A DNA stretch of 64,000 nucleotides from Clostridia bacterium (lineage in GTDB: Bacteria > Bacillota > Clostridia > Oscillospirales > QAKW01). Positions 1 through 57,420 of the stretch are shown piece by piece. The first letter of the stretch is position 1. Each line of letters opens with the position of its first letter. The translations under genes were made by a program, and so were the position numbers. Under the pieces are notes generated by a model. That model was not told the origin of the DNA, ran no database searches, and worked only from the letters and a program-made list of their open reading frames with translations. The stretch lies in the NCBI GenBank assembly GCA_017440465.1, contig JAFSHF010000031.1, forward strand, positions 6,064 through 70,063, in the 5' to 3' direction.

Positions 1-1
1 A

Positions 2-505: not shown

Positions 506-508
506 ACA

Positions 509-1827: not shown

Positions 1828-1832
1828 AACGG

Positions 1833-2102: not shown

Positions 2103-2120
2103 GATAAGGAGAAGAAGAAA

Positions 2121-4049: not shown

Positions 4050-4066
4050 GGAGGTGCGTGTGAAAA

Positions 4067-6666: not shown

Positions 6667-9600
6667 ATGGCAAAGAAGTCGACCCGTGTGTTGAGCTTCA
6701 TCCTTTCGGCATTGCTGCTGGTATCGATGTTACCGGTGGTTTCTTTGGCGGAAGAAGCAAAGTTCTATACCTACGATGAAGCAGCGACCACAAAGAACTA
6801 CTATGATGATCTGGATTTTACCGCTCTGGTCGGCCCCGCAAATGAAAATGAGACAACAAATGTCTTTATTATCGATGCCGATTGGAATTATAAGGCAGGC
6901 GAGGAACCCAAGAGCGTCAGCTTTACGTTCCGCGATGAAAAGATCACCGAGACCTATAATGCAAATCGGCATATGTCGAGCATTTCCAATGCGGTAAATT
7001 ATGTCTCGGAAAACGGGATTAAAAAACCGGTCTTTATCTTCACCGAGGGTGTTTATTCCGATCCGCTGAAGATGGCAAACGGTTTTACTGTCTTAGGTCC
7101 CAAGGCGGGAATGAACCCCAACGTCCCCGATGCCGACCCCACCAAGGAATGGGCGCTGAGCAGCAAGCGTAAGCTCCCCACCAATACCAAGACCAACGGC
7201 GAGGCGGTCTTCCGCACCAACGAATCCGGCGAAGACGGAACCCACCTCATCAATGGCGATAATAACTCGGTCGGTACCCAGAACTATATCATCGACGGTG
7301 TGGTTTTCCAGGGCAACGGCTCCGGTGTGGCGGATGAAGCCTCTTCCGGTTCGGGTACAAGAAATTGGTATATCCAGAACTGCATCTTTGATGACTGCCA
7401 TTCCAAAGGCGGCCGCGGCAGCTCGGTCGGTATTGGTTTCGACCGTCGGTCAGGGCAGACCTACGCCAAAAACCTGTATGTCTGCAACAGCTATGTCATC
7501 AACCAAAATAACTATCCTCTCTATTCCGGTCACGCCACCTCGGTCCATTTCAACGGCGTATCGGTGCAGAAAAGTTCACGTTCTTTGTGTGGCAGGATTC
7601 AATGTCTGCAATGGCAAGGTCAAACCACGGAAGTGACCAACTGCCATTTCTGGAATGCGAAGGGTTCCGAACGTGAAGGCATCTATTTCCCGGTGACCTG
7701 GGATAATTATTGCAATTCCGGTGTCGGCACCGACGACGCGCTCTTTTCTGCCGTCTTCCGCAACAATTCCTTCTATCACATAAACAGAGGGGATGATCCG
7801 ATCATTCAATTTGGTGTGGCGGGCAATACCAATGTCACCATTGAAGAGAATATCTTTATCTCCGAAGAAGACGGAAAGGTCAGAGCTCCCATCAATGTAA
7901 GATACATTACCGTAAATGGTGAAGTCACCCATAACGGCATCGGCCAGACCGTCGACGATGTCCGCACCGTCGCTGTCGTAAGCAACGCCGGTGACTATAA
8001 GCTGACCAACGAGCAGGTGATGGTTCGTAACAACACCTTTATCGGCTCGGAATTTATGACCTTGCCCAACATCGGAACGAACATGAATAAAGAAACCAAG
8101 GTGGAGCTGCTCGGGAACCTCTATCTGAAGAAGCTGGGCGATACAAACGGTCAAATGATCGATCCCTATGTGGAAGGCGCAAAGATCTATAATAAGTGGG
8201 TCTGGTTGGATGCCGCCCGCACCAAGGCTTCTTCCGAGATCGTGGAGGAAGATATTTCCATTACCAGCGGCGGTCAGCCGATAGAAAAGAACGGTTATGA
8301 CCTCTATCTTTCTGCCGGAACAGAGTATGAAAAGCAGATCGAAGTTTCCTGCAACGCAGAAAACTATATCCGTGTGTATAAATCCGATGCATCCTGGTCC
8401 AAAGGTGCGCAGGTGGAAGGGAACAAAGGAACCTATACGCTGAATACCGCGGGGAGAAGCAACTACTACATTGTGACCATCACCTCGACGGATCAGCGGA
8501 CCGAGCTGAACTATAAGCTCACCATTGATCGTGATCCCAACCCGAATGCGCAGCTGAACGCGGTTCATCCGCAAAGCAATGTCCTTTCTTCCTTCAACGA
8601 TAAAGTCACCTATACCTATAGCGTTGGCTTTGATGTCGAAAACTTCGCCTTTAAGCTGGATACCTCTGCCAATGCCATCGTTTCTGTATGGAATGTGGAT
8701 GGAATTATCCGATCCGATGCCGATGGGGTCTATACCACCGGCAAGCTTGAAGCCGGAGCCGAAGAGACCTATGAGATCTGGGTCGTTGACCAAGCAAAAA
8801 ATGAGGAAGTCTACTATCTGAATATTTTCCGCGAGGAAAATTCCGCCACTGAGCTGCTGGGTGTTTCCGCGCCCGAGGCTTCGGCAATCACCGCGGCAGG
8901 CAAGACCTTCAATGTGAAGGTCCCCACCAATGCGGCCGCGTTGAATCTGACCCTTGCGCTCTCCGAAGGCGCGGCGGCGGAGATGACCGACCCGATCTAT
9001 CAGATGCCGATCATCCCGAAGAACGGTGTATTCACCATCAGCCCTGTTCTGGGCGGGAAGAACACCTATTCGGTCACCGTCTATTCGCAGGACGATGCGC
9101 ATCAAGAGGAATGGACGATCGTTGTTGAGCGTGAAGCCAAGAAAGGATGCGAACTGCTGGGCATCGCCGGAACCGAAAAGGTCGGCGATATGTATGTCGG
9201 CTATACCGCAAATAAAGTATTTTTGATCAGCGCAACCGTTTCGGAAGGCGCAACCTATAAGATCTATACCGATCCTGCCTGCACGCAGGCGGTCTCTTCT
9301 CCCAGAGTCGCGCTGACAGCCACGACCAATAACTTCTGGGTCAAGGTCTTTGCGGAGGATACGGCATATGTTTCCGAACCGGTCAAGGTTCTGATCAATA
9401 CCTATGCCGATACCACCGAGCCGGAGGATATCCCGGTCAAACTGCCGATGAACGATGACGGCATCCTCGGTGTCACCGGCGGTGAATTCAATAAGAATAC
9501 CGTAATCGTTCCTTTGGCACCCGAAACCGAGAAGTATACCTTCCGTGTTCAGGGCTTTGATGGTTATGTGGCGCGGGTCTATTCCGATAAGAGCGAAACC

Positions 9601-10341
9601 CCGATGCGCCCTGCCAATGCGGTCGATCTCACCTTGGATTCCGGCAGAACCACCCTTTATGTCACCGCCACCAAGGGAACCGGCGCAAATAAAATCGTCA
9701 AGGAATACACCGTCTATATCGTTGCCCCCAGAGTGTATACCTATACCGATAAGCAGGTCGATTGGGCGGCAGAGTATATCGCTGAGATCGGCACCAACGG
9801 CTGGGGTCTGATGAAGGGTTATCCCGATGGCTCCTTCGGCGGCGATAAGCAGCTGACCCGCTATGAAATGGCGGCATTGATGGTCCGCGTGTCCGGTGCC
9901 AATGTCCATCTCTATGCCGCGGCGCGGAATCCCTTCAGCGATTTCATCGCGGAATGGGCGCTGGGCTATGTCAAGGCCGCTTCCCGCATGGGGATGATCA
10001 ACGGCTATGAGGTTATAAACGACGAAGGTATTACCGTCTTTGAATTCCAAGGCGATAAGAAATCCACCCGAAGCGAATTCTTCCGTGTCTTTGCCAATGC
10101 CGTGCTGGGCAAGGATGTGGATGAGTATTATAAAGCCAATCAAAAGAAGATCGATAAGGCAGTCGAAGAACTGAACCTTGCCGATCTGAACGCGATCGCC
10201 GATTGGGCAAAGCCCGCGGTCTATACCGCCGTTTATTTGAAATTGGTGCAGGGCGACCATAATAAAAAGGTCAACCCCGAAAATAATATCACCAGAAACG
10301 AAGTTGCGGTGGTTCTGGGCAGATACTATAATACCCTTTAA
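6667..10341 (+). CDS. Large secreted surface protein with C-terminal S-layer-homology (SLH) repeats
   Basis: Signal peptide; beta-helix-like N-terminal region; C-terminal SLH-type repeats (DWAAEYI..GLMKGYPDGSFGGDKQLTRYEMAALMVR); SD AGGGAGGA upstream. Confidence 0.85.
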   Translation: MAKKSTRVLSFILSALLLVSMLPVVSLAEEAKFYTYDEAATTKNYYDDLDFTALVGPANENETTNVFIIDADWNYKAGEEPKSVSFTFRDEKITETYNANRHMSSISNAVNYVSENGIKKPVFIFTEGVYSDPLKMANGFTVLGPKAGMNPNVPDADPTKEWALSSKRKLPTNTKTNGEAVFRTNESGEDGTHLINGDNNSVGTQNYIIDGVVFQGNGSGVADEASSGSGTRNWYIQNCIFDDCHSKGGRGSSVGIGFDRRSGQTYAKNLYVCNSYVINQNNYPLYSGHATSVHFNGVSVQKSSRSLCGRIQCLQWQGQTTEVTNCHFWNAKGSEREGIYFPVTWDNYCNSGVGTDDALFSAVFRNNSFYHINRGDDPIIQFGVAGNTNVTIEENIFISEEDGKVRAPINVRYITVNGEVTHNGIGQTVDDVRTVAVVSNAGDYKLTNEQVMVRNNTFIGSEFMTLPNIGTNMNKETKVELLGNLYLKKLGDTNGQMIDPYVEGAKIYNKWVWLDAARTKASSEIVEEDISITSGGQPIEKNGYDLYLSAGTEYEKQIEVSCNAENYIRVYKSDASWSKGAQVEGNKGTYTLNTAGRSNYYIVTITSTDQRTELNYKLTIDRDPNPNAQLNAVHPQSNVLSSFNDKVTYTYSVGFDVENFAFKLDTSANAIVSVWNVDGIIRSDADGVYTTGKLEAGAEETYEIWVVDQAKNEEVYYLNIFREENSATELLGVSAPEASAITAAGKTFNVKVPTNAAALNLTLALSEGAAAEMTDPIYQMPIIPKNGVFTISPVLGGKNTYSVTVYSQDDAHQEEWTIVVEREAKKGCELLGIAGTEKVGDMYVGYTANKVFLISATVSEGATYKIYTDPACTQAVSSPRVALTATTNNFWVKVFAEDTAYVSEPVKVLINTYADTTEPEDIPVKLPMNDDGILGVTGGEFNKNTVIVPLAPETEKYTFRVQGFDGYVARVYSDKSETPMRPANAVDLTLDSGRTTLYVTATKGTGANKIVKEYTVYIVAPRVYTYTDKQVDWAAEYIAEIGTNGWGLMKGYPDGSFGGDKQLTRYEMAALMVRVSGANVHLYAAARNPFSDFIAEWALGYVKAASRMGMINGYEVINDEGITVFEFQGDKKSTRSEFFRVFANAVLGKDVDEYYKANQKKIDKAVEELNLADLNAIADWAKPAVYTAVYLKLVQGDHNKKVNPENNITRNEVAVVLGRYYNTL

Positions 10342-10369
10342 GGAACATCCTTTGGTATAAAACTTAATT

Positions 10370-10406
10370 AAAAGCAGTGTGGAAATTTTTCCACACTGCT
10401 TTTTTT
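10370..10406 (+). terminator. Intrinsic terminator after the 6667 SLH gene (first of two near-identical hairpins)
   Basis: GCAGTGTGGAAA/TTTCCACACTGC stem plus T-run; second copy at 10696-10730. Confidence 0.8.
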
Positions 10407-10575
10407 AGACGGTCAAAAAAGTCCCCGACCGCAGAAAAAGAAAAATTAAAAGCAGTGGAGACCAATTTATAAAGTTTTTCATAGAGAAGGGGTTATACTC
10501 TTTCTCTATGTTCTTTTATAAGGAAAAAATCCGCATAGCAATGCTTATTTTGATTGGATTTTTTCTGCTATCCGC

Positions 10576-10621
10576 CAAACCGCTCTCTACCGTACCTATG
10601 TACGCCGACGAGAACGGTTTG
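10576..10621. repeat. L-hairpin copy 1 (conserved loop TACCGTACCTATGTACGCCGAC, stem CAAACCGCTCTC/GAGAACGGTTTG)
   Basis: Read directly; flanks TTTTTCTGCTATCCGCC and GACGAATTC are shared with the other copies. Confidence 0.75.
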
Positions 10622-10811
10622 ACGAATTCGGAAACATTTTTGCTCCGTCTCCCCAGCGTGTCAAAGATCCAAAGATTTTTTCTTTGACACGCTGTAAAAG
10701 CAGAGTGGAAAAATTTCCACACTGCTTTTTATCGTTCTCCGGTTGCTTTTCTTTTTGAAAATTGTTATAATTAAAATGTATAGAGAAAAATAAAATAGGA
10801 AGGAACGTTTT

Positions 10812-13800
10812 ATGAAACGAATCATTTCTGCCGTTTTAATTTTGATAATGCTCATCCCCCCGATGGTCCTGCCCGCCGAGGCGGCGACCTTGGTGCAAGC
10901 CGATTCAGCGGTGCGTATTACCGCCGATAAGGCGGTGGCAGCGGTCGGAGAGACAGTGACCGTAACCGTAGCGTTTGAGAATATCCCTGCCTGCGGTGCG
11001 GTGGATTTTAATCTGGTCTATGATACGGAATATCTGCAGGCACCGGCGAAAAGTGATGTCTCGATGAATATTGGGGGGACGGTAAAAGATCGAAATCCCG
11101 CCTATAGTATCGACGAAAAGACGTCCGAAGAATATGCGGGGCGGCAAGCGGTGAAGGTGGTTGCCGCGGGTGATTCCAATTGCCTGAAGGGAAGCAGCGG
11201 AACGCTTTTCACAGTCAAATTCGTTGTGGCGAATGAAGCCCCGGCTCCGGGGATCCCTCTTGCGTTTTTCGGGACCTTTAGCGATCTCTACAGTAATCGG
11301 GATCTGCGTAATACCATCCAAGTGTTCAATACCCATATTGCCACCGCCGATCCGACCAAAGAGGTAACCGCGGTTGCTCTGAAGCAAGCGCCGACCAAGA
11401 CCGAATATGTGCAGGGGCAGGCGTTGAATTTGGAGGGCGGCCGCCTTTTGGTCAACTATGACGATAGTTCCTCTCAAGAGGTGTATCTATCCTTGGCGCA
11501 GATCACCCAATATGATTTTACCAAGCTTGGAACCCAGACCGTCAAGGCAGAGTATGCAGGCAAAGAGGTCTCTTTCGAGATCCAAACCGAAGCGTCCGTG
11601 CTCTCTTCCATCTCGGTCGGCCAGGTGCCGGCGACGGTCGAATATATCCAAGGAAAAACAGCTCAATTGGATCGTTCCGAAGGCGTCCTGCTGCTCCATT
11701 ATACCGGCGGCATTGTTAAGACCTTGGAGATGTCCGATGCGGAGGTCACCCTCTCCGGCTATGATAAGGATCAGTTGGGTGTTCAGAAGATCAAGGTGCA
11801 GTACGGCGGCTTTGAAACCGAATATAAGATTGCGGTAGTGAAAAAAGCCATCAGCGATATCGACGTCCGCACCCCGATGGTCTGCGATGCCTGCGGGAGC
11901 GAGTGGAGTGCTTTTGATTTAATTCAGGCGGCAGACGCAAGTGCCGATCCCTACTCGATGGACTTCAATGAGCGGCTGACTTATATCAAAAATACCGCCA
12001 ATAACGTCACCTGCCCTTCCGACACCTGCGCAGGCGCGACCTTTTCCACCAAAATGAAGATGGTCTATTTTGTCGGCGAAGACTTCGATGTGGGAAACGC
12101 CAAACTGTTTGTCACCTATTCCGGCGGTACCACCGAAGAGATCGATATGACCTTGGATATGGTGGAGTTCAAGAACACCTTTGCCACCACTCAAAACGTG
12201 GAGGTGGCGTATGGAGCGCAATGGATGTTGATCAAAAACGTCCAAACCAGAAAAAAAGAAGCCACCGCCATCACCGTCACCCGGAAGCCCAAGACCGAAT
12301 ATGTGAAAGGGCAGTCCTTCGACCGCACCGGCGGAATCATCCATGTGGAATATAATGACGGCTCGGAGGAAGACCTCCCGATGGAGCATGAGGATGTCCG
12401 AGTCCATTATAGTGGGATGGATGAGCTGGGCGAACATAGAGTCACCGTTTTTTATGAAAGCCAACAAGCCTACTTTTATATCAAAGTCATTGCGCGGGTG
12501 GTGAAATCCATCGCCGTTGATCCGGAAGCAACTTCGACCTATGTCCGAGGGCGGGAGCCGGACCCCGACACCAAATTGCTGGTAACCTATAACGACGATG
12601 AAACAGAGACCGCTTATCTTAGAAACGCAACCGTCGAAGGCTATAATTCCGAGCAGATCGGGCTGCAGGTGCTGACCATCACCTACGGCGGTGTGAATTG
12701 TAATTGGCCGGTCACGGTGGAAGAAAAAGTGGTGACCGCGCTGGAAGTGGTGGGTACTCTGCCTACCACCGTTTTGGAAGAAACAGAACTGAATTTAGAG
12801 GGTTGCACCCTCACCGCCACCTATAACGAAGGGAAGTTGGTGGAAGAAAATATCGCCATCACCCCCGATAGGATCAAGAACTTTGATAAAAGTCAGTGCG
12901 GTTTGCAGACCGTCACCATTGAGTTTGGAGAGGGGACCGTCACCTTTGAGATCACCGTCCTTGAAAAATCGCTGACTTCCATTGAGGTGGAGGGCGTCAA
13001 GGAGCAATATCTGCTGATGGATGCGTTGGACCGCTCGGTCGGCAAGATCAAGTTGATCTATAATAACGGTACCGTTGATTATATCGACTTCAGCGATGAA
13101 AACATTTCGGTGGAAGGCTTCCAAAGCGATGTCGCCGGAGAGCAATTGGTAACGGTGGAATATCAAGGGTTTACCGATACGTATCCGGTAACGGTCTACA
13201 TCGAGATCTTGAGCATCTCTGTTACCCCGCCCAAGAAAACCGCCTATATAGAAGGCGAACCGCTGGATCTGACCGAAGGGTTTCTTCATATCACCCAACC
13301 GAACGGAACGATCAATATACCCCTCTCCGAGGGGATGGTTTCGGGGTATGAAGCCGATCGTATCGGCGAGCAGACCCTCACCATCGAAGTGGGCGAGCAT
13401 ACCGCCGACTTCAAGGTTACAGTCAGAGAGAAGCAATTAACGGGCATTACCGTCAGCCCCGAAACCATCGATCATAACGAATGGGAAGAATTGGACTTCT
13501 CCCAAGTCGTCGTAACGGCGTGGTACGATAATAATACATCCAAGACGGTAACAGAAGAAGCAAGTAAAGCCGCGTACGATACTTATGTTATCTACACATA
13601 TGAGGGAAAAACCGCGACATTAAATGTAAATGTCATCAAACGAGCACCTATTTTCATCGAATGGGCAGAAGAACCTCAAAAGAGAACCTATTTTGCGGGC
13701 GAACCGTTGCTCAAAGACGGAACGATTCGGGTGCATTATAACGATCAGTCGAATGAGCAGCTCCCTTTGACCGATGAAAATGTATCGATCATCGGAGATA

Positions 13801-15140
13801 CCAATGTGGAAGGAGCGGAAACGGTCTATGTGAAATATAACGATTTAAGCCCCATTAGCTTTGAGATCACCGTCGTTCCGGTGGTGGTTGAGAAGATCGA
13901 GATTACTACCGAACCTGAGCGTAGCTATATTGAAGGGCAGCCTTTGAATGTGGCAGGCGGGATGATCCTCATCACCTATAATAATGAGGATACCGAGCCG
14001 CTGGCGATGGATGCCGCGGGGGTCACCCTTTCGGGCTATGATCCCAATAAGATCGGGGAGCAGACCGTCACCGTTACCTACGGCGGAAAAACCGCTACCT
14101 TTACCGTCAACGTTCGCGCCAGAAAGGCAGTAAGCATCCGTATATCGACTCGACCCAAGACGGAGTACTTAGAGGGCAAGGATACTGCGCTGAATTTAGC
14201 GGGCGGAAAACTGACCGTGTATTATGATAATAATACTTCGGCAACCATCAATCTTACTGACTCGCAGGTTACAGTAAGTGGTTTTAAAGCGACGCAGATC
14301 GGGGATCAAACGATCACAGTAAGCTACCCCGGCGTTTCATCTGCGACCTTTACTATTACGATGAATAAAAAAGCGGTGGAATCCATCGCCATCGCCGCGA
14401 TGCCGACCAAGATGATGTATCGGCAGGGCGTCGAAAAATTTGATCCCGCCGGCGGGTTGATTACGGTTTTTTATAATAACGATACCAAAGAGACCGTCCA
14501 TCTTTCCAAAGCAACCGTCAGCGGATTTTCCAATCTCTTTGCAGGGGATGTCACCGTCACCGCAGTCTATCAAGGCTCTGCGGTGGAGTTTAAGGTGCTG
14601 ATCCTTGCGGAAAATCCCTTTAAAGACGTCAAGGCGAACGAATATTATGAGACGCCGGTTCTTTGGGCGGTGACCAAGGAGATCACCAAAGGAACGGCAG
14701 AGGATACCTTCAGCCCCAACGATGAATGTACCCGCGGCCAGATCGTCACTTTCCTCTGGCGTGCCGCCGGGGAGCCCGCGACCGAAACCGCCAAAAATCC
14801 GTTTAAGGATGTCAAAAAAGGCGAATATCATTATAATGCCGTTCTTTGGGCGGTGGAAAACGGCATCACCAACGGGATGGATGCCACCCACTTTGCTCCC
14901 GATGCCTCTTGTACCCGCGGGCAGGTCGTCACCTTCCTTTGGCGGGCGGCAGGAGAGCCTGCGCCCGAAACCGCCAAAAATCCGTTTAAGGATATCAAAA
15001 AGAGCGAATATTATTATAACGCCGTTCTTTGGACGGTGGAAAACGGCATCACCAACGGAATGACCGACACGACCTTTGCGCCGAATTCAACCTGTACGCG
15101 CGGACATATAGTCACCTTCCTCTACCGCACCTATGACTAA
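10812..15140 (+). CDS. Giant surface protein: N-terminal cohesin-like domain, about 13 bacterial Ig-like repeats, three C-terminal SLH-like repeats
   Basis: Signal peptide MKRIISAVLIL; cohesin-like GETVTVTVAFENIPACGAVDFNLVYD; ~80-aa repeats (KTEYxxGxxLxLxGGxLxVxY..GxQxVTVxY); three near-identical NPFKDVK..WAVENGITNG..CTRGQVVTFLWRAAGEP units. Confidence 0.85.
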   Translation: MKRIISAVLILIMLIPPMVLPAEAATLVQADSAVRITADKAVAAVGETVTVTVAFENIPACGAVDFNLVYDTEYLQAPAKSDVSMNIGGTVKDRNPAYSIDEKTSEEYAGRQAVKVVAAGDSNCLKGSSGTLFTVKFVVANEAPAPGIPLAFFGTFSDLYSNRDLRNTIQVFNTHIATADPTKEVTAVALKQAPTKTEYVQGQALNLEGGRLLVNYDDSSSQEVYLSLAQITQYDFTKLGTQTVKAEYAGKEVSFEIQTEASVLSSISVGQVPATVEYIQGKTAQLDRSEGVLLLHYTGGIVKTLEMSDAEVTLSGYDKDQLGVQKIKVQYGGFETEYKIAVVKKAISDIDVRTPMVCDACGSEWSAFDLIQAADASADPYSMDFNERLTYIKNTANNVTCPSDTCAGATFSTKMKMVYFVGEDFDVGNAKLFVTYSGGTTEEIDMTLDMVEFKNTFATTQNVEVAYGAQWMLIKNVQTRKKEATAITVTRKPKTEYVKGQSFDRTGGIIHVEYNDGSEEDLPMEHEDVRVHYSGMDELGEHRVTVFYESQQAYFYIKVIARVVKSIAVDPEATSTYVRGREPDPDTKLLVTYNDDETETAYLRNATVEGYNSEQIGLQVLTITYGGVNCNWPVTVEEKVVTALEVVGTLPTTVLEETELNLEGCTLTATYNEGKLVEENIAITPDRIKNFDKSQCGLQTVTIEFGEGTVTFEITVLEKSLTSIEVEGVKEQYLLMDALDRSVGKIKLIYNNGTVDYIDFSDENISVEGFQSDVAGEQLVTVEYQGFTDTYPVTVYIEILSISVTPPKKTAYIEGEPLDLTEGFLHITQPNGTINIPLSEGMVSGYEADRIGEQTLTIEVGEHTADFKVTVREKQLTGITVSPETIDHNEWEELDFSQVVVTAWYDNNTSKTVTEEASKAAYDTYVIYTYEGKTATLNVNVIKRAPIFIEWAEEPQKRTYFAGEPLLKDGTIRVHYNDQSNEQLPLTDENVSIIGDTNVEGAETVYVKYNDLSPISFEITVVPVVVEKIEITTEPERSYIEGQPLNVAGGMILITYNNEDTEPLAMDAAGVTLSGYDPNKIGEQTVTVTYGGKTATFTVNVRARKAVSIRISTRPKTEYLEGKDTALNLAGGKLTVYYDNNTSATINLTDSQVTVSGFKATQIGDQTITVSYPGVSSATFTITMNKKAVESIAIAAMPTKMMYRQGVEKFDPAGGLITVFYNNDTKETVHLSKATVSGFSNLFAGDVTVTAVYQGSAVEFKVLILAENPFKDVKANEYYETPVLWAVTKEITKGTAEDTFSPNDECTRGQIVTFLWRAAGEPATETAKNPFKDVKKGEYHYNAVLWAVENGITNGMDATHFAPDASCTRGQVVTFLWRAAGEPAPETAKNPFKDIKKSEYYYNAVLWTVENGITNGMTDTTFAPNSTCTRGHIVTFLYRTYD

Positions 15141-15301
15141 ACCGTTGAAATGGGCGCATCTTCCGATTTTTTGCCCCTCGGCATATCATTATATAGCCGA
15201 GGGATCAAAGAAATCGAAACCTGCATCCCATTTGAACGGTTTCGACCGAGAGCAAAAATGAAATAAAAAATCGACCTTGAATTTCAAGGTCGATTCTTTT
15301 T
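15141..15301 (+). repeat. Module X copy 1: conserved leader, two hairpins and a terminator (candidate small RNA / 3'UTR element)
   Basis: Starts at the stop codon of the 10812 gene. Hairpin 1 is 15175-15203 (CCCTCGGC/GCCGAGGG, loop ATATCATTATATA). Hairpin 2 is 15214-15245. Terminator is 15271-15301. Confidence 0.6.
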
Positions 15302-16262
15302 GTAGGGAACAGGTTTTCCATCCCGCTATGATCCGTACCAAATGAATTGGTACGAAACAATCCAAACGATTTGGGTGTACCAAATGAATTGGTACGGAAG
15401 CATACAAATGATTTGTATATGCACAATTGAATTGTGGATCGAAACACAAATGATTTGGGGTACCAAATGATTTGTTAGGCACAGATATTTAATTAATTTG
15501 TAGGGGACGATTGTCTTCATCGTTCCGCTTTTGCCGTACCAAATGAATTGGTACGAAAGCATACAAATGATTTGTATGTGCACAATTGAATTGTGGATCG
15601 AAACACAAATGATTTGGGGTACCAAATGATTTGTTAGGCACAGATATTTAATTAATTTGTAGGGGAAGATTGTCTTCATCGTCCCGCTTTTGTCGTACCA
15701 AATGAATTGGTACGAAACAATCCAAACGATTTGGGTGTACCATATGAATTGGTACGAAAGCATACAAATGATTTGTATGTGCACAATTGAATTGTGCACG
15801 ATCCCTTTGCAACATCAAAAAATTCATCGCAAGCCGTTGTTTGCTCGATATTTTTTGTGTTGCGGCAGCTGCTAACCTGCTCCCTTCATCGTCCCGTTTG
15901 CAACATCAAAATATTCATCGCGCGGTGCGCTCGATATCTTTTGTGTTGCGGCACCTGCTAACCTGCTCCCTTCATCGTCCCGTTTGCAACATCAAAATAT
16001 TCATCGCGCGGTGCGCTCGATATCTTTTGTGTTGCGGCACCTGCTAACCTGCTCCCTTCATCTGCCACTGGCAGCGGTCGCAGTCGCAACCACAGGCAGC
16101 GGTCACAGTCGCAACCAAATGAATTGGCACGAAAAACACAAAAGATTTGTGTTTCATACCCCAAATGAATTGGGGGTACCAAATGATTTGGTAGGTGACC
16201 GCCCAAACGAATTGTGGACAAAAAAAAGAAGTGTGCATCGAAACACAAATGATTTGGGGGTT
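15302..16262. repeat. CAAWTGAWTTG palindrome mosaic, locus 1 (about 23 cores, in 159-198 bp higher-order units opened by GTAG hairpins)
   Basis: Examples: GTACCAAATGAATTGGTAC at 15335-53, 15377-95 and 15536-54; also CATACAAATGATTTGTATG, GCACAATTGAATTGTGC and CCCCAAATGAATTGGGG. GTAG hairpins at 15302, 15500 and 15659. Confidence 0.85.
15806..16062. repeat. Tandem repeat, 3 units of 91/86/~80 bp, embedded in locus 1
   Basis: Units start at 15806, 15897 and 15983. Units 2 and 3 are identical where both are present. Each unit can form a long hairpin GCAACATCAAAA...TTTTGTGTTGC. Confidence 0.85.
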
Positions 16263-16338
16263 AGTGACATTTTTCGCCATTGCTTTTTGGCAAAAGATTT
16301 GATATGATTATAGTATCAAGAGAAAGGAATTTTAGAGA

Positions 16339-17397
16339 ATGAAACGAATCATTTCTTGTTTACTGATTTTTGTAATGCTGATGGCCGCCATTCCCGCATC
16401 GGCGGCAGCGGATAAAACCGCGCGTTTGGTGCTGGATGCGCCGTATGGTGTGGTCGGTCAGGAGTTGGAAGTCCAAGTCCGTGTGGAAAACCTTGTCGAA
16501 TGTGCCGGGTTCACTATCGTTTTAGAATACGATCAGAACGTTTTGAAACCCTTAGATTTTAAAGAAGAGAAGCTCGGTGGATTGATGGCCTCCGAAGAAA
16601 AGGGAAAAGGAGTCTATGCATTAATATGGATAGGGTTTGATGATACCAAAAACGATATCGTAACGATTAAAGGCGATGTTGCTATCGGAACGTTTAAATT
16701 CAAAGTGCCTTCCATGCCTAAAAATGGAATGATTGCGATAGATATTAGAGAAGAAGATACAATGTTTGCCGATAATTCTCAAGAAACCGAAGAAATCGAT
16801 TATTCATTTGATCCTGTGTTCATTCCTATGTATAAAAACCATCCCTTTACCGATGTCACGGCTGATTGGTATAAGGAAGCGGTATTGTTTGCATACAATA
16901 ATAATTTGATGAACGGTATGGGCGAGAATAAGTTCAAGCCCGATGACGCCACCACCCGTGCGATGTTGACGACCATTCTTTACCGCTATGAGGGGGAACC
17001 CGATGTTTCGGCAAAAGCCCCCTTTACCGATCTGGAGCAGAATTGGTATAAAACCCCCATCAACTGGGCATACGAAAAAGGCGTTGTCAAGGGTATGACC
17101 AACACGACCTTCGCGCCGGAGGAAAAGGTTACCCGCGAGCAGATCGCGGTGATGATGTATCGTTATGCCGAGGGCAAGAAGCAGGATGTTTCTCAAAGAA
17201 AGAAGATCTCTTCTTTTTCCGATGCCAAAAAGGTTAGCTCTTGGGCAAAAGAAGCGATGGAGTGGGCGTATGCCGAGGGCTTAATCACCGGCAACTCCAT
17301 CAACGGCAAGGTACTGCTGGATCCTCAGGGCAACGCTACCCGCGCTCAGATCGCCACCATTCTGATGCGGTACATTAAGAACGCGGCCGAACAATAA
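16339..17397 (+). CDS. Cohesin-domain protein with three SLH repeats
   Basis: Signal peptide MKRIISCLLIF (first 18 nt identical to the 10812 gene); cohesin-like GQELEVQVRVENLVECAGFTIVLEYD; SLH repeats. Confidence 0.85.
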   Translation: MKRIISCLLIFVMLMAAIPASAAADKTARLVLDAPYGVVGQELEVQVRVENLVECAGFTIVLEYDQNVLKPLDFKEEKLGGLMASEEKGKGVYALIWIGFDDTKNDIVTIKGDVAIGTFKFKVPSMPKNGMIAIDIREEDTMFADNSQETEEIDYSFDPVFIPMYKNHPFTDVTADWYKEAVLFAYNNNLMNGMGENKFKPDDATTRAMLTTILYRYEGEPDVSAKAPFTDLEQNWYKTPINWAYEKGVVKGMTNTTFAPEEKVTREQIAVMMYRYAEGKKQDVSQRKKISSFSDAKKVSSWAKEAMEWAYAEGLITGNSINGKVLLDPQGNATRAQIATILMRYIKNAAEQ

Positions 17398-21327: not shown

Positions 21328-21447
21328 AAAAATCACTTCCTTATAGTTTATTCTAAACGATTTTACTTTAGAAGACAAGATTTAATTGAAAAATTGGTTG
21401 ATTTCGTGTATATTAGAAATAGAAATTAAAAAGAAAGGAGTTTTTAT

Positions 21448-23579: not shown

Positions 23580-23762
23580 ATGGATAAAGCTGTTAAGAGT
23601 AATGCAAAAGCAGGCCTTGATAAGATGAAGTTCGAGGTTGCCCGCGAGATCGGTGTTGATCTGAAGCAGGGTTATAACGGCGACTTGACTTCTGCTCAGG
23701 CCGGTCATATCGGTGGCCAGATGACCAAGAAGTTGGTTGAGCGTGCCGAACAATCCCTGTAA
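23580..23762 (+). CDS. Small acid-soluble spore protein, alpha/beta type
   Basis: KFEVAREIGV and GHIGGQMTKKLV signature blocks; strong SD AAGGAGG. Confidence 0.85.
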   Translation: MDKAVKSNAKAGLDKMKFEVAREIGVDLKQGYNGDLTSAQAGHIGGQMTKKLVERAEQSL

Positions 23763-23908
23763 GTAAAAGACTTGGATATTTGCGCAGACCGAAAAAGCAA
23801 AAAATAAAGAAAAAATAAATGCTTTAATCTCTGCGTAACCAAAAAATAGGAATAAAAGCGGCTCAAATGAGCCGCTTTTAATTTAAAATTTTTTGCTTTT
23901 TCTATCGC

Positions 23909-23956
23909 CGATCTCGGCGTCTACCGTACCGATGTACGCCGACGCCACCGAGATCG
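23909..23956. repeat. L-hairpin copy 2 (same loop, stem CGATCTCGG/CCGAGATCG)
   Basis: Read directly. Confidence 0.75.
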
Positions 23957-24158
23957 AAGATTCTGCATCAAATCTTCAAGTCTTTTACAGTTTCTGCTCC
24001 TACATAAGTCTGTGCGAAAAGGCGGATATTGGCGCAGACCGCAAAAAACAAAAAAGAAATAATATAGGTCTTTTCAGTTTATGCGAATGCGAAGAATAAG
24101 GAATAAAAGCGGCTCATTTGAGCCGCTTTTAATTTAACTTTTTGTTTTTTGCTATTTC

Positions 24159-24382
24159 CGATCTCGGTGCGGGGAAGCGGGGGTAATTTTGCCTTGCCGC
24201 AAAAAGCGGTCGAAGATTTTTAAAACAGACGAATTTCGGTTGAGCAAGGCAAAAGCGCAGGCAATACCGTCGTATTGCCGAGCATTTTAACGCAGCACAG
24301 GCGGAATTGGTCGGTTTAAAAACAAGGATAAAGTTACCCCCGCTTCCCCTTGTACCGATGTACGCCGACGCCACCGAGATCG
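24159..24382. repeat. L-hairpin copy 3, interrupted in its loop by element E1
   Basis: Left stem at 24159-67 and right stem at 24374-82; the loop remnant GTACCGATGTACGCCGAC follows E1. Confidence 0.7.
24171..24349. mobile_element. Foldback element E1 (179 bp, 16-bp perfect terminal inverted repeat GGGGAAGCGGGGGTAA)
   Basis: Present in one of two otherwise homologous L-hairpin loops; its internal core is homologous to E2. Confidence 0.45.
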
Positions 24383-24485
24383 AAAATTCTACATCCAATC
24401 TTCGCCTTTTTGGTGGTTCCTGCTTCTACATAAGTCTGTGCGTAAAAATGCGCAGACCGCAAAAAACAAATTTAATTTCATAGTG

Positions 24486-24955
24486 CTATAAAACTCGAAT
24501 GATTTTTTTGTGCTGTTTTATAGCGTAATCAAGGGCGATTTTGGTGCCGCTTTTGCGGGTGGTTGGGGTGCGCTGTTCATTGTAATAGACGATGCAAAAA
24601 TGGCTATGATCGATCATTTCATAATTGCGCTCGACATAAGATGCTTTTCCTGCGTTCAGTATCTTTTCGGGATAATAGGTGTCTTCATAAGTTTCAAGTA
24701 AGTAGTTTTTATAGTGCTCGCTTATATAAGGATATTCCGCTCGCACATAAACGCGCTTTATGTGTGGGTGTTTTTCTTTTATCTCAGACACGATTTCAAG
24801 GCACAAATTATTAAACCGGCTCTTACTTCCGAAAAGGAACGTATCAACTTTTCGTCTACGATCAGTTTTTCGATGACTTCAAAAAGGCACACTTTTAGTT
24901 CTGCGGTTTCGTTTATCGTTCTATGTCCAAAAAAGCAACATATATTGTTCTTCAT
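24486..24955 (-). pseudogene. SLOG/DUF1273-like protein gene interrupted by a single frameshift
   Basis: ATG at 24955 reads MKNNICCFFGHRTINETAELKVCLFEVIEKLIVDEK. The homology (VDTFLFGSKSRFNNLCLEIV...) then continues in another frame that joins track ORF 24486..24806. The switch lies at an A4 run near 24848-24853. Confidence 0.6.
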
Positions 24956-25061
24956 AGCACACCTCTTAAAAATAATAGATATACCATATATCCATTTTAA
25001 ACATTATAACACATAAAACATCTAAAATGAATATACAATATATTTATTATGAGGTGTATTT

Positions 25062-25262
25062 ATGGCAATCAAGAGTGTTTCAATAAGAATTGAAGAAGAA
25101 ATGTTGAATAAAATCGCACACATTGCTGAGTACGAAGGCAGAAGTGTAAACAGCCAAGTTCTTGTTTTAATAAGAGAAAATATTAAGGCTTTTGAAGATG
25201 CGAATGGTGCTATTGACGGCAACATTTCTCCGGCTTCAAATGTCAAACCGACTCGTAAGTAA
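25062..25262 (+). CDS. Ribbon-helix-helix (Arc/CopG-like) DNA-binding protein
   Basis: N-terminal beta-strand/helix pattern KSVSIRIEEEMLNKIAHIAEYEGRSVNSQVLVLI; followed by an intrinsic terminator. Confidence 0.55.
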   Translation: MAIKSVSIRIEEEMLNKIAHIAEYEGRSVNSQVLVLIRENIKAFEDANGAIDGNISPASNVKPTRK

Positions 25263-25265
25263 AAA

Positions 25266-25298
25266 AACACTCTGCTGAGTTTCAGCAGAGTGTTTTTT
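25266..25298 (+). terminator. Intrinsic terminator after the RHH gene
   Basis: CACTCTGCTG/CAGCAGAGTG stem plus T6. Confidence 0.8.
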
Positions 25299-25323
25299 GA
25301 TTGCAGAATTGGAGGGTTTCTTT

Positions 25324-25537
25324 GTAGGGGACGGGTTTCCCGTCCCGCTATGACCCGCAACCAAATGAATTGGTAGGGGTAACAAATGAATTGGTGGGGG
25401 GGTAACAAATGATTTGGTAGGGGGACATACAAATGATTTGTAGGCTTGCACAAATGATTTGTGCAAAGAACGTAGCAAATGAATTGGTACAGTAATGCAC
25501 AAATGAATTGTGCAACAGACCCCAAATCATTTGGGGT
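25324..25537. repeat. CAAWTGAWTTG palindrome array, locus 2 (8 cores, opened by a GTAG hairpin)
   Basis: GTAGGGGACGGGTTTCCCGTCCC at 25324, then 8 cores, ending with the inverted CCCCAAATCATTTGGGG next to the TTGACA -35. Confidence 0.85.
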
Positions 25538-25539
25538 AA

Positions 25540-25568
25540 TTGACATTTTTTTAGAAAAAGGCTATACT
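25540..25568 (+). promoter_or_regulatory. Promoter TTGACA-17-TATACT at the right end of locus 2
   Basis: Consensus hexamers with counted spacing. A homologous junction GGGGTTAGTGACATTTTT occurs at 16256-16275, at the end of locus 1. Confidence 0.55.
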
Positions 25569-25597
25569 GATGGCAGTAAATATGAAGGAGAATTCTT

Positions 25598-25771
25598 ATG
25601 CATAAGGTTATTAAAATTCTGCTTTGGGTGTTTGTGCCCATCTTTTTGGTGTTGTTTACATCCTCTGCGTTTATAGAATCTCAGGCGGTGCGGATCGCGG
25701 AATACATTGTGGATGCCATTTTGCTGGTATTGATCGGCATCGAATTGTTTTCATCCAAAAAGGAAAAATAA
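25598..25771 (+). CDS. 57-aa predicted two-TM membrane peptide (below the ORF-track size cut-off)
   Basis: Read by hand: MHKVIKILLWVFVPIFLVLFTSSAFIESQAVRIAEYIVDAILLVLIGIELFSSKKEK; SD GAAGGAG 7 nt upstream; TTGACA-17-TATACT promoter; terminator follows. Confidence 0.35.
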   Translation: MHKVIKILLWVFVPIFLVLFTSSAFIESQAVRIAEYIVDAILLVLIGIELFSSKKEK

Positions 25772-25821
25772 GAAAGGGGCTGTAAAAAAACGAATGTATT
25801 TTACAGCCCCTTTTTGTGCAG

Positions 25822-26000
25822 TTTTTGCTGTCGCAAAAGTGAAGTTGCTCGGGTTCCTTGCAGTGAAGTTTGGCTTTTCGCCAAGTGAAGTTGCTTCGCA
25901 GAGAATGAAAGGTTTGCCCTCTTCGCGAAGCGAAACTTCACTCTCCTTTTGGAGAACTTCACTTATTTATAAACTTCACTTGCCCATCGGGCAAACTTCG
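25822..26000. repeat. GTGAAGTT / AACTTCAC foldback array A
   Basis: GTGAAGTT at 25839, 25863 and 25885. AACTTCAC at 25934, 25955 and 25972, plus a degenerate AACTTCG. The motifs alternate with 4-7 bp-stem mini-hairpins. The array abuts the stop codon at 26003. Confidence 0.8.
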
Positions 26001-31698: not shown

Positions 31699-32790
31699 AT
31701 GAAAAATTTTGCCTTATTGATTACCGCCCAGGGATGCTCTCTGACCGGCGGATATATTCAGACCTTGGTGCTTTCCTGGATCGCCGCCAAGCAGAGTGGA
31801 GGTGTGCCGCTGGCGTGGTATATGATCGCCTGCTATCTGCCGGTGGCGGTGCTCTCCTACCCGCTGGGGCGGTTTTTGGACGGAAAACACCTAAAGCCTT
31901 GGCTGATCTCCAGCGAGATCGGGTTGGCGGCTCTGTCGCTGTTGCTTTGGCTGGCGGCGGTGTTTGAATGGTTGAGTTTCCCTTTTCTGCTGGTGTTTGG
32001 CGGGGTGTGGGGATGCGTTCGCGCTCTGCAGACGCCCATCTACCAAAGCCTGCCCAAGCGGCTTGCCAAGGACCTCAAAAAAGGAACGGCGCTGTTGACC
32101 GCCGTCACCTACGCCGCCCGCGGCCTCGGGCCCATATTAGGCGGGCTTCTTTATGCCAAGTGGGGCGCGGCGGTGCCGTTTTCGGTCAATTTCGCCTCGT
32201 TCATCCCCTCGGTGGCCTTGCTCTGCTTTTTGAAAATTCCCCAAGGGGAGCGGGGGCAAAAGCCGCGGCTGAAGGGTTGGATCTCTCCGCTCTTGCGCAT
32301 TTTTGCGGTGGGATTTTTCGGGGTGCAATATAACGTCACCTTTGTATCCCTCATCAAAGAGGCGGGCAAGGGCAGTGCCGCCTACGGCATTGCGCTGGGG
32401 CTGCTGGGGCTGGGTGCCTTGGCGGGCTTTTTGATCAAGACCCGCTTCAAAAAAGAACTCCCCCGCTTTGTTGCTGTCGGCGGGATGGGGGTTTTGAACC
32501 TGCTGCTGTTGTTGCGGTGGGGGATGGTCTGGCAGAGTGCTTGCATTTTGCTCTACGGCAGTTTGGATTTTTGGTTTTTCGCCCAAAGCAGTTATCAGCT
32601 TTCCCGCGCCGCCAAGGAGCGGGAGTTGACGGCGGTGATGGGGTTATATACGATCGCTACCGTCGGCGCGATGCCGCTGGGCGCGTTGCTTTGGAGTTGG
32701 GTCTCCAAGGCGGCAGGGCTTTCGGCAACGTTTTCTGCCATCGGCGGCGCACTATTGATTTTGGCTATTATTGAAAAAAGGAGAAGGTGA
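31699..32790 (+). CDS. MFS transporter
   Basis: 363-aa polytopic ORF; its stop codon lies inside the left arm of foldback element E2. Confidence 0.8.
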   Translation: MKNFALLITAQGCSLTGGYIQTLVLSWIAAKQSGGVPLAWYMIACYLPVAVLSYPLGRFLDGKHLKPWLISSEIGLAALSLLLWLAAVFEWLSFPFLLVFGGVWGCVRALQTPIYQSLPKRLAKDLKKGTALLTAVTYAARGLGPILGGLLYAKWGAAVPFSVNFASFIPSVALLCFLKIPQGERGQKPRLKGWISPLLRIFAVGFFGVQYNVTFVSLIKEAGKGSAAYGIALGLLGLGALAGFLIKTRFKKELPRFVAVGGMGVLNLLLLLRWGMVWQSACILLYGSLDFWFFAQSSYQLSRAAKERELTAVMGLYTIATVGAMPLGALLWSWVSKAAGLSATFSAIGGALLILAIIEKRRR

Positions 32791-33058
32791 CAAGAATAAT
32801 CCGAATCTGCCTCAAAGCAGGACATTTCGGTGCTTTTCGCCCATTTTTCCTTGATAGGCGCCGGCCTATCTGCAAAAAAGATGAACAAAAATCCCACGAA
32901 ATCTCCGTGCTTTGTGGTCGAAGATTTTAAAAAGAGCGGATTTTTGTTTCATCAAGGCATAAAACACAGCCAATGCCGGCGCATTGGCGAGTATTTTAAC
33001 GAGGAGGAAACGGAAATCCGCCTTTTTAAAACAAGGTTCGGATTATTCTTGTCACCTT
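32784..33058. mobile_element. Foldback element E2 (275 bp, 22-bp perfect terminal inverted repeat AAGGTGACAAGAATAATCCGAA)
   Basis: The left arm contains the TGA stop of the MFS gene. The right arm ends 4 nt before the pepD ATG. The core (GGTCGAAGATTTTAAAAAG..hairpin..GAGTATTTTAACG..TTTTTAAAACAAGG) is shared with E1. Confidence 0.45.
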
Positions 33059-33062
33059 AAGT

Positions 33063-35461: not shown

Positions 35462-35604
35462 TGCGTGTTTTCTCCTTTTATAAAGTTGTTTTTTCTCCGT
35501 GATCGAAACACCTTTTTTTGCACACCCCACCGTTCGTTGCATCCTTCTGCCCGATGCACAAACGATGAAATGTGGCCATTCATCGTGACGAGCATATTGA
35601 TCTT

Positions 35605-35750
35605 CTGCGCGGAAAGTATTCCGGCTCGCAACTAAAACGCATCCGCTTCGCCTTCCCATTTTTTAAAAAACAGTGGCATAATGAAGCCTCGCTCGTTGCA
35701 CACGGCGGCGGGACCGCGGGGGCATCGCACCCCTCTTCCATCCCGCGCAG
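35605..35750 (-). promoter_or_regulatory. Cobalamin (B12) riboswitch aptamer
   Basis: Minus strand: P1 CTGCGCGG (35743-35750) pairs with CCGCGCAG (35605-12); GGAUGGAAGAGGGGUGCGAUGCCCCCGCGGUCCCGCCGCCGUGU core; B12 box GCCACUG (35671-77) followed by GGGAAGGC. Confidence 0.75.
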
Positions 35751-35769
35751 ATTGGAGATCTTGACTAAT

Positions 35770-40673: not shown

Positions 40674-41669
40674 TTATATCTTTAATCGCCGCTTTAATGC
40701 GGCGAGATATTCATCTTTTAATTCGGCGGGGGCATCCAAGGTGACCTGCGCGCCCAGCGAGAAGAGCCAGCCGTAGAAATGGGAGCTGGGGATGACCTCT
40801 GCGCGGGTCTGCAACCGCCCTTCTGCAATGCGTGTGAGGTTTAGTTCCTTGCCGAAGCGGTCGATCATGGCATCCAGCAGATGATCGGGGAAAGAGAGGG
40901 TGACCATTTGGCTTTTGCCGCCAAACATCCCAAAAACGCGGGCGGTATAGTCCTCCATCCGAATCGCCTTGAAGGCATCGTCCCCTTGGCGGGGTTGGTC
41001 TGCAATCCGAATGTCGCCCATCCGATCGACACGGTAATGGTGGATGGATTGGGATTTATGGTCAAAGGCGATGAGATAATAATATTCATCCTCCCAAAGC
41101 AACTGCCAAGGGGAAGCCTCATAGAGCGCGCCGTCGTGTCGCGGGCGGCGGACCAGCCGCCCCTGCTGATACACCCATTCATAGTAGCGGAAGGTGATGG
41201 CGCGGTTTTCGCGGATGGCGCGGTTGAGATCGTCCACCAGATAAAAGATGGTCTCGTTCATATTTTTAATTCGGCTCGCCACATGGACGCTCCGCTTGAG
41301 TTGCCCGCCTTGATAACGGCTGGCCAACGCCGAAAGCTTTTGGAGCAGTTGGTCGGATTTTTTGGCGGTGATGAACCGCGAGGATGCCACCGCATCCGCC
41401 AGCAGCCGCAGTTCGGCGGTCTCAAATTCCCGCGATGCCAGATAATAATAGCTTTGGTGCCCCTGCTTTTCGGCAAGGATATCCATCCCGCATTGGTTTA
41501 AGGTCTCGATGTTCTCATAGATGCTCTTGCGCTCGGCGTGGATGCCGAAACCCTCCAGCATCGCTAAGATCTCCGCCATGGTGATGCCGTGGTCTTCATC
41601 CGTCTCCTGCAGGAAGATCTGCATCAGCCGCAGCAGTTTTTGGTTCTGGTGGGCAGACTTTGCCATCAT
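40674..41669 (-). CDS. HTH-WYL-domain transcriptional regulator
   Basis: N-terminal wHTH; central WYL-type beta domain (WQLLWEDEYYYLIAFD..HHYRVDRM); C-terminal extension. Confidence 0.85.
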   Translation of the reverse strand: MMAKSAHQNQKLLRLMQIFLQETDEDHGITMAEILAMLEGFGIHAERKSIYENIETLNQCGMDILAEKQGHQSYYYLASREFETAELRLLADAVASSRFITAKKSDQLLQKLSALASRYQGGQLKRSVHVASRIKNMNETIFYLVDDLNRAIRENRAITFRYYEWVYQQGRLVRRPRHDGALYEASPWQLLWEDEYYYLIAFDHKSQSIHHYRVDRMGDIRIADQPRQGDDAFKAIRMEDYTARVFGMFGGKSQMVTLSFPDHLLDAMIDRFGKELNLTRIAEGRLQTRAEVIPSSHFYGWLFSLGAQVTLDAPAELKDEYLAALKRRLKI

Positions 41670-45729: not shown

Positions 45730-45902
45730 TATGCGGTAACACCTGCCTTTACTTTTGCCAACGCAATATATTCTTCCATAGAAATCTCTTTGTTTAAGAG
45801 CTTGCGGCACCATTCTTTGGTTTGCTCATCCACCGAAAACCCTTCCATTTCCAAGGAGAATGTGGCGTTTTTGATGCAACGTTCCATTTGTTTTTCGCTC
45901 AT
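45729..45902 (-). CDS. VbhA-type antitoxin
   Basis: Inhibitory (S/T)xxxE(G/N) motif as SLEMEG; translationally coupled to Fic; start set at the ATG at 45902. Confidence 0.8.
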   Translation of the reverse strand: MSEKQMERCIKNATFSLEMEGFSVDEQTKEWCRKLLNKEISMEEYIALAKVKAGVTA

Positions 45903-57247: not shown

Positions 57248-57256
57248 TAGAGAACA

Positions 57257-57358: not shown

Positions 57359-57420
57359 CCGAAAAAGATAGGACGATACCTCCTGATTTTCGAAGTGGAA
57401 TGAAGGAGGTATTTTTTATT

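Follow-up and report, generated by a model that had tools for sequence, protein, structure and literature searches.

A 179-bp foldback element behind a spore-protein gene: a probable diverged member of a MITE-like repeat family in gut Clostridia

Introduction

RUP of Streptococcus pneumoniae, Correia/NEMIS of Neisseria, and ERIC/IRU of enterobacteria are TA-flanked bacterial MITEs that are transcribed within mRNAs (summarized in part in PMC3049150). S. pneumoniae also harbors BOX, a group of strain-variable modular foldback repeats that form stable RNA structures in the 5' and 3' adducts of operons and can alter the expression of downstream genes (PMC3049150). Here, we analyzed a foldback element, E1, in a 64,000-nucleotide stretch of DNA from a Clostridia bacterium (the window; contig JAFSHF010000031.1), together with the repeats that share its core, the E family. 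Like RUP, Correia, and ERIC, the members of this family are small, non-coding, and TA-flanked, have terminal inverted repeats (TIRs), form a long RNA hairpin, are dispersed in intergenic transcribed DNA, and are present or absent depending on the strain; orientation-dependent effects would be a further likeness. Unlike these systems, however, E-family elements have a Y shape with two arms of ~105 nt and a core that covaries on one strand, the subfamilies share this core and differ in their termini, and copies are concentrated at the spacer from SD to start codon or within it. E1 itself departs further, having neither TA nor a target-site duplication (TSD) and being single-copy. With BOX, the family has in common that it is a modular foldback repeat with a stable RNA structure and varies between strains. 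BOX differs in being built of boxA, boxB, and boxC modules with a variable number of boxB, in lacking sequence similarity, and in having no reported preference for the SD-ATG spacer.

A hairpin of two inverted copies of a smaller palindromic module, in which the structure rather than the sequence is constrained, is also found in the REPIN/RAYT system. However, REPs measure 20 to 40 nt, have a conserved 5' tetranucleotide and no long TIRs, flank a RAYT gene, and lie mostly at the 3' ends of genes. The E modules are ~107 nt long, the TIRs are long and conserved, and no Y1 transposase is encoded in the window, and membership in REP/REPIN-RAYT was therefore rejected. Miniature elements derived from IS200/IS605 (PATEs) share with the E family only the one-strand signature: they have no TIRs, carry subterminal hairpins at both ends on one strand, and have a fixed 4- to 5-nt target 5' of the left end, whereas TIRs are present in the E family and the left flanks share no common tetranucleotide. 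Tn3-derived miniature elements (TIME/MIC) have ~38-bp inverted repeats that start with GGGG and end with TAAG, and a 5-bp TSD. The arm of E1 also starts with GGGG, but it has no TAAG at positions 35 to 38 and no TSD, and this assignment was rejected as well. Finally, genes 38 and 25 of phage T4 have split ribosome-binding sites, in which an RNA helix brings the SD and the AUG to working distance. At least seven full-size (E2-type) copies occupy exactly that position between SD and AUG; the T4 hairpins are nevertheless short and not mobile repeats, and the comparison does not apply to E1. No IS with TIRs matching the E family was identified among the window ORFs or the fetched loci.

Results

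Genomic setting of E1

The window starts with the C-terminal part of dnaN followed by recF, gyrB, and gyrA (positions 1 to 6553), and its GC skew climbs steadily, which places it beside oriC with the plus strand leading. E1 (24171 to 24349, plus strand) lies downstream of recG and of a gene for a 60-aa SASP (23580 to 23762, plus strand), whose transcript contigs end at a terminator hairpin before E1. Behind the SASP gene there are two units of ~250 bp, here called L-units. Each is a Y-shaped foldback with a closing stem and two arms, one ending in a bidirectional terminator hairpin and the other being the L-hairpin (z -13). Unit 1 (23763 to 23988, plus strand) is of type A and intact, with its L-hairpin at 23904 to 23961. 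Unit 2 (24013 to 24440, plus strand) is of type B, has its terminator hairpin at 24104 to 24131, and harbors E1 in an arm of its L-hairpin. According to inverted repeats and orthologous loci, the 5' arm of this host hairpin (24154 to 24170) is the left flank of E1; a TT filler, an apical mini-stem, and the 3' arm follow on the other side (24350 to 24387). An earlier note on this DNA, made from the sequence alone, had read the L-hairpin at 23904 to 23961 as uninterrupted and the one at 24154 to 24387 as interrupted, and both readings are present in the sequence. It had placed E1 in the loop of the latter; E1 does lie within an L-hairpin copy, but on the 5' side of its small apical stem and not in the loop.

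The spacer as a whole (23763 to 24440; ~3184 to 3900 in L001 to L010, the loci from other assemblies being numbered with an L) is a tandem array of such ~250-bp foldback units of two subtypes, and the number of units varies among strains from one truncated unit up to three. Each unit opens with GCGCAGACCG, which repeats the beginning of the SASP 5' UTR, and the loop of the terminator hairpin is inverted between strains (AAAT/ATTT).

Sequence and fold of E1

The TIR GGGGAAGCGGGGGTAA at 24171 to 24186 recurs as its exact reverse complement at 24334 to 24349 (16/16), and the inverted repeat reaches 20 nt with 19 matches (95%). The plus-strand RNA folds at -88.7 kcal/mol (z -9.9), which no shuffle equals, the minus strand folds at -75.1 kcal/mol, and E1 folded as DNA gives -52.5 kcal/mol (z -8.4). 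In this fold, a ~26-bp closing stem with one bulge (5' arm, 24171 to 24196, of which the outer 16 nt are the perfect TIR; 3' arm, 24323 to 24349) encloses a 13-nt mini-hairpin (CCGCAAAAAGCGG, 24197 to 24209), an unpaired junction TCGAAGA (24210 to 24216), and an irregular hairpin of ~106 nt (24217 to 24322), all on the plus strand. This last hairpin, the right arm, is the core that E1 shares with a second element of the window, E2, and 39 other copies (162 bits with covariance model R1); its apical module spans 24243 to 24297. Alignment with E2-type copies identifies the mini-hairpin as the stump of the ~105-nt left arm of full-size members, and the junction is conserved in the alignments, where it is partly fixed by the search pattern.

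The 179-bp foldback with perfect 16-bp TIRs reported in the earlier note was thus confirmed by the inverted-repeat and fold analysis. The note was also right that E1 has no coding capacity, as the only ORFs across it are spurious palindrome-spanning artefacts, and that there is no clear target duplication: the junctions, with GGTGC on the left and TTGTACC on the right, show no direct repeat. Of the nested stems that it described in the interior, the pairing TTTTGCCTTGC/GCAAGGCAAAA does exist, but it was rejected as the main fold because compensated changes in the copy from L019 back the closing stem instead. This copy, at the same locus in a lineage that is 88% identical in recG-SASP, is the only other E1-type copy found. 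It is 84.5% identical to E1, with flanks at 89 to 90%, and among 65 predicted pairs 6 are compensated (5 of them in the closing stem), 2 are wobbles, and none is broken.

At gathering scores, an Rfam 15 scan of the window found only a THF riboswitch, a cobalamin riboswitch, and one tRNA (listed at 57256 to 57360, plus strand; 35594 to 35762, minus strand; and 56172 to 56256, minus strand) and nothing at E1 or E2, for which permissive scans gave only sub-threshold chance matches. Similarly, scans for promoters and terminators covering E1, E2, and their surroundings gave nothing above the shuffle expectation apart from the bidirectional terminator hairpins already known. Ribozyme classes, 6S RNA, retron ncRNA, integron attC sites, Tn3-type ends, and IS110 bridge RNA were dropped as candidates because there was no Rfam signal, no partner gene, or the defining ends were absent.

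Filled and empty alleles

An exact look-up of the SASP protein yielded ten orthologous loci from independent assemblies. The type-B site is empty in L001, L002, and L007, which read ...CCGATCTCGGTGC-CTACC-GTACCGATG... and have flanks identical to those of the filled site (CGGTGC-CTACC-GTACCG). It is filled in the window, L005, L006, and L009, which read ...CCGATCTCGGTGC-[E1]-TT-GTACCGATG..., and in L003, which has AT where the others have TT. The event was imprecise: the 5 bp CTACC were swapped for the 181 bp of E1 plus TT, with no target duplication. Since the flanks are otherwise nearly identical, these alleles represent a true empty/filled pair, and since CTACC is missing from the filled allele, the empty one cannot be derived from it by deletion. 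Furthermore, the type-B units of the outgroup lineages L004 and L008 (84 to 86% identical over recG-SASP) are also empty, with the same CTACC, which makes the insertion the derived state. E1 is a derived insertion into a type-B L-unit downstream of the SASP gene.

The earlier note had likened the two L-hairpin copies of the window to an empty and a filled site. The uninterrupted copy (its copy 2) belongs to a paralogous unit of the other subtype and is not the true empty allele; true empty alleles came from other strains. The insertion itself is well supported and withstood the objections that the note had named, as relatives differ at the orthologous site, a deletion does not explain the empty state, and the core of E1 belongs to a dispersed, strain-polymorphic repeat family. 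On the recG-SASP tree, the empty alleles are nested within the filled ones. The SASP spacer is, however, more conserved than the neighboring RecG-SASP region, so that recombination has probably decoupled its history from the gene tree. A second look-up via the 57-aa downstream gene gave only additional contigs of the same strain, and identical E1 sequences occur in independent ENA, NCBI, and Logan assemblies.

E1 is an old element and present as a single copy. In four gut metagenomes containing the window's strain, its arms occur at the depth of the flanks (7.5x), indicating a single copy, and no other contigs there match them at ≥80%. In contrast, the apical 55 nt (24243 to 24297) reach 100 to 176x in gut metagenomes and come from contigs with different stems; judged by these matches, the apical module appears to be common to a much wider family than E. 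An E1-type-specific 21-mer had a single match in a scan of the metagenome collection, a chance one within a QueD-like coding sequence. E1 is invariant (0/179 sites) in four alleles of the window clade, while the flanks vary at 31/270 sites, which fits either a recent spread by recombination or constraint.

The E family

E2 (32784 to 33060, plus strand) is a canonical, full-size member located between the SD (AAGGAG) and the ATG of a gene for a PepD-like M20 peptidase. It shares with E1 a covarying core of ~125 nt (32904 to 33044 in E2) with 10 compensated pairs, which bears out the homology between the two interiors that the earlier note had proposed. The same note had suggested a genome search for the core. 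A three-block core pattern run against a genome collection (one genome per species, 8-kb flanks) gave 36 loci, with up to 7 per MAG, and all but one of these 36 stretches come from uncultured Clostridia, Eubacteriales, or Acutalibacteraceae MAGs from animal guts. The covariance model raised the number of copies to 41 (uncultured Acutalibacteraceae/Eubacteriales MAGs). Plasmid, phage, and viral-contig collections searched with E2 or the core pattern gave no match, a literature search with the element sequences retrieved no paper, and keyword searches retrieved only general MITE and RNA papers. The E family appears to be a previously undescribed group of ~278-bp mobile foldback repeats in uncultured gut Clostridia. 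In public gene calls, a 76-aa ORF that is almost certainly spurious has been placed within E2 (L048, 1268 to 1498; L049, 1086 to 1316).

Canonical elements are 277 to 279 bp long and Y-shaped, with a closing stem and two long arms of ~105 nt. Their 26-bp TIRs are conserved, reading TAAGGTGAC-(variable 7 to 8)-ATCCGAACCT with TA at the outer ends, although several copies lack the TA (E2 of the window, L019, and L016). L015 fits a TA duplication inside AAAGGTTAATATGG exactly, but because TA is palindromic, such a duplication is indistinguishable from an extension of the TIR. The left arm is a diverged inverted copy of the core, matched by the model on the opposite strand at ~35 bits, which makes the element a doublet held together by the 26-bp closing stem. 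Indels of 1 nt and compensated changes in the stems distinguish the copies, the one in L022 is truncated, and another subfamily (L035, 1976 to 2115) also has different termini.

Tabulating termini and flanks, as the earlier note had proposed, set E1 apart from the canonical copies. The termini of E1 match the family TIR at only ~12/26 positions, mostly through A-to-G changes that are mirrored in the other arm, so that a transposase moving E2-type copies is not expected to move E1. E1 has preserved its closing stem at full length as well as the junction, the core, and the two basal base pairs of the left arm; ~90 nt of that arm are lost.

Strain differences that speak for mobility are also seen in the 120-bp divergent spacer between recG and an SDR gene, where we observed three independent E2-type events. 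In L019, a copy (3302 to 3576) separates the SD of the SDR gene from its start, in L010, which is 97% identical to L019, a copy abuts the SD of recG instead (1 to 100), L003 and L009 have a 19-bp solo-TIR footprint (~800 to 830), and the spacer is empty in all other strains (21379 to 21447 in the window). The cognate transposase or recombinase that the earlier note suggested looking for was not found: according to Pfam, none of the 50 ORFs of the window encodes a transposase, integrase, or site-specific recombinase, and no Y1 transposase or RAYT is among them. The fetched loci contain no long TIR pairs.

Constraint on one strand of the core

We assessed covariation on 39 distinct core sequences, in an alignment fitted to the model. 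Paired cells made up 97.4% of the core, compared to 90.4% after shuffling (0/500 shuffles were as good), changes occurred on both sides in 24 of 43 pairs, and all slid controls dropped to 40 to 51% paired. The non-Watson-Crick cells comprised 135 G·T and 3 A·C, over 19 and 3 pair columns, respectively. As the mismatches would fall on the opposite strand, the constraint acts on one strand only; many of the G·T cells are inherited rather than independent and the alignment is model-fitted, which leaves the size of the effect uncertain but not its direction. In the TIR stem, by comparison, mismatches are strand-symmetric (37 G·T, 30 A·C), and this terminal stem behaves like ordinary double-stranded TIRs decaying symmetrically. 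Unpaired blocks are also common to E1, E2, and other subfamilies, an invariance that is partly circular because three blocks were imposed by the search pattern.

Position at ribosome-binding sites and transcription

In about 22 of the 31 canonical copies, the end lies -2 to 35 nt upstream of a start codon on the same strand, and 5 of the 31 abut the SD of a divergent gene at their other end. At least seven copies lie exactly between SD and ATG, with the SD on the left flank and the start codon after or overlapping the last bases of the element (...CCTTA/TG). These are the copies upstream of CoaE (L015), SDR (L019), TrmK-like (L021), PflA (L029), and PBP (L037) genes, the copy in L046, and the one before the PepD-like gene of the window. 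Since the N termini are normal for those protein families, the 278-nt element sits within the ribosome-binding site. The genes downstream of copies are functionally unrelated (CoaE, DnaB, BipA, MscL, SmpB, MurI, PflA, PepD, and others). Of the two TIRs, the left (UAAGGUGA) is SD-like and the right (UCACCUUA) is similar to the 3' end of 16S rRNA, a likeness that could underlie a preference for SD-like targets.

The core strand is on the G-rich (leading-like) strand in 29 of 40 copies and on the opposite one in 11, and both E1 and E2 are on the leading strand beside oriC. Orientation correlates with gene direction as well as with GC skew; nine cases are discordant, of which six follow the gene and three the skew. 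As for transcription, which the earlier note had proposed to check, family sequences do occur in RNA libraries, including one contig that spans an entire element and both flanks, with DNA carry-over being possible. Metatranscriptome contigs cover the SASP mRNA up to the terminator hairpin and none lies over E1; these data are assembled contigs, which cannot show absence.

Other features of the window

Next to the L-units, a low-GC (39.5%) island at 24450 to 26000 is found in the window, in L006, and partly in L009, and is absent from L001 and L007. It holds a split YpsA-like ORF pair, a gene for an Arc-like ribbon-helix-helix protein (25062 to 25262), and four or five iteron-like repeats of 21 to 24 bp (25355 to 25491), and it looks like the remnant of a small integrated replicon. 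A palindromic motif (CCAAATGAATTGG / ACAAATGATTTGT) occurs at least 9 times in the 900-bp spacer at 15334 to 16256, which also contains 86-bp tandem repeats (15843 to 16100); the motif recurs in the low-GC island (25355 to 25462) and in tandem in L019 (1 to 200). The region from 6667 to 17397 encodes very large surface proteins with cohesin, Big_3, and SLH domains (1224 and 1442 aa) along with a smaller protein of the cohesin-SLH type, which suggests a cellulosome-like system on the cell surface. Finally, at 40674 to 42670 and 45142 to 45813, a WYL-domain regulator adjoins an RHS-repeat protein and a Fic/DOC gene lies in a second low-GC patch (44 to 46 kb).

Discussion

We consider it probable (about 0.6) that E1 is a non-coding, non-autonomous foldback repeat, namely a diverged, internally deleted, single-copy member of the dispersed MITE-like E family. 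As judged by analogy, bacterial MITE-like foldback repeats of the RUP/Correia/ERIC kind would be the most economical reading of that family. E1 is small (<~600 bp) and non-coding, has TIRs, and is polymorphic for insertion at orthologous sites. It has no TSD, while most E2-type copies have TA on both sides, and its arms occur at single-copy depth, the family as a whole amounting to 41 copies with up to 7 per MAG. The canonical copies would have been moved in trans by a TA-duplicating DDE transposase of the kind that mobilizes RUP, Correia, and ERIC, and may last only at sites where the complete element becomes a self-contained fold in the transcript, so that translation initiation still works. 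E1 is probably not mobile any more. It would be an immobile relic that has lost the family termini and most of one arm and that lies behind a terminator, outside any 5' UTR; its hairpin may be kept by selection against an unpaired palindrome or by templated repair from arm to arm. It probably adds a stable stem-loop to an already hairpin-rich spacer, and nothing more. Several observations do not sit well with this reading. E1 lacks a TSD and its termini depart from the family TIR, no autonomous element or transposase is found among the 50 ORFs of the window, the TA of the canonical copies may equally be an extension of the TIR and is missing from several of them, and the invariance of E1 in four alleles is not predicted for a neutral relic unless it spread recently by recombination.

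This invariance, together with the absence of broken pairs relative to the L019 copy, could be accounted for if the core were a functional structured RNA, that is, a cis-acting 5'-UTR module that binds a protein or a ligand or organizes translation initiation, spread or recruited upstream of many genes, with E1 a variant retained because of its own function. A functional RNA, rather than a relic, would be predicted to show such a one-strand signature and conserved unpaired nucleotides, and the covarying stems with almost no A·C mismatches, the unpaired blocks common to E1, E2, and other subfamilies, the bias toward sense orientation at or inside ribosome-binding sites, and the retention of the apical module in many other elements with different stems all point in this direction. 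We nevertheless hold this explanation to be unlikely. The downstream genes are unrelated, which is a poor fit to a ligand-specific riboswitch, copies appear and disappear among strains that are 97% identical, with footprints left behind, Rfam has no match, and the conservation of the three unpaired blocks is partly imposed by the search pattern. E1, moreover, is located behind two terminators, not in a 5' UTR, and is not seen in RNA contigs. In a related proposal, which we regard as speculative and rather doubtful, the core would define a novel class of structured RNA that travels on a mobile element and enables it to persist within ribosome-binding sites. Its Y-fold would join SD and start codon up to 278 nt apart in the DNA, its unpaired nucleotides would bind a cellular factor that tunes the translation of dozens of unrelated genes, and E1, a version retained with a single arm, would have a role of its own among the hairpins behind the spore-protein gene.

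If the family moved as single-stranded DNA via an HUH/Y1 enzyme, in a REPIN/RAYT- or IS200/IS605-like manner, the replication strand rather than transcription could lie behind both the one-strand signature and the orientation bias. G·T-rich and A·C-poor stems would fit a hairpin read on one DNA strand, E2-type elements combine two inverted ~110-nt hairpin modules, much as a REPIN combines two REPs, the core is on the leading-like strand in 29 of 40 copies and on the leading strand beside oriC in E1 and E2, and E1 has no TSD. This is quite improbable, however, given that IS200/IS605 and REP elements lack long conserved TIRs bounded by TA on both sides such as those of the canonical copies, that six of the nine discordant cases follow the gene and three the skew, with the L019 copy, which follows a lagging-strand SDR gene, as one example, and that the window has no Y1 or RAYT gene. 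More improbable still is that E1 was original to the type-B unit and that the empty alleles arose by excision or deletion, with no insertion. On the RecG-SASP tree, the filled alleles of the closest clade (L005, window/L006, L003, and L009) are indeed paraphyletic and the empty ones (L001, L002, and L007) form one tight nested cluster, but deletion cannot create CTACC, strains with one unit lack a donor for gene conversion, the type-B units of the more distant L004 and L008 are likewise empty and contain CTACC, the core is homologous to a dispersed family, and recombination in the more conserved spacer probably uncouples its history from that tree. As for a chance palindrome or an assembly artefact, only the general tendency of assemblers to mis-join repeats speaks for it, and the agreement between independent assemblies, a fold z of about -10, and a diverged L019 orthologue that keeps the fold make it negligible.

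Taken as a diverged member of a MITE-like family, E1 alone is minor, one stranded repeat in a non-coding spacer, but it leads to an apparently undescribed family in abundant uncultured ruminant-gut Clostridia. Full-size members of this family lie at the SD-to-start-codon spacer of housekeeping genes, and at least seven independent ones lie within it. They change place between 97%-identical strains and bear the sequence mark of selection on a single-stranded fold. The family also matters for gene prediction in these MAGs, in which spurious ORFs of 76 aa have already been called within the element. If the genes concerned are still translated, they would represent a natural system in which RNA folding neutralizes a 278-nt insertion inside a ribosome-binding site, and such bridged ribosome-binding sites would help to explore how large the distance between an SD and a start codon can become.
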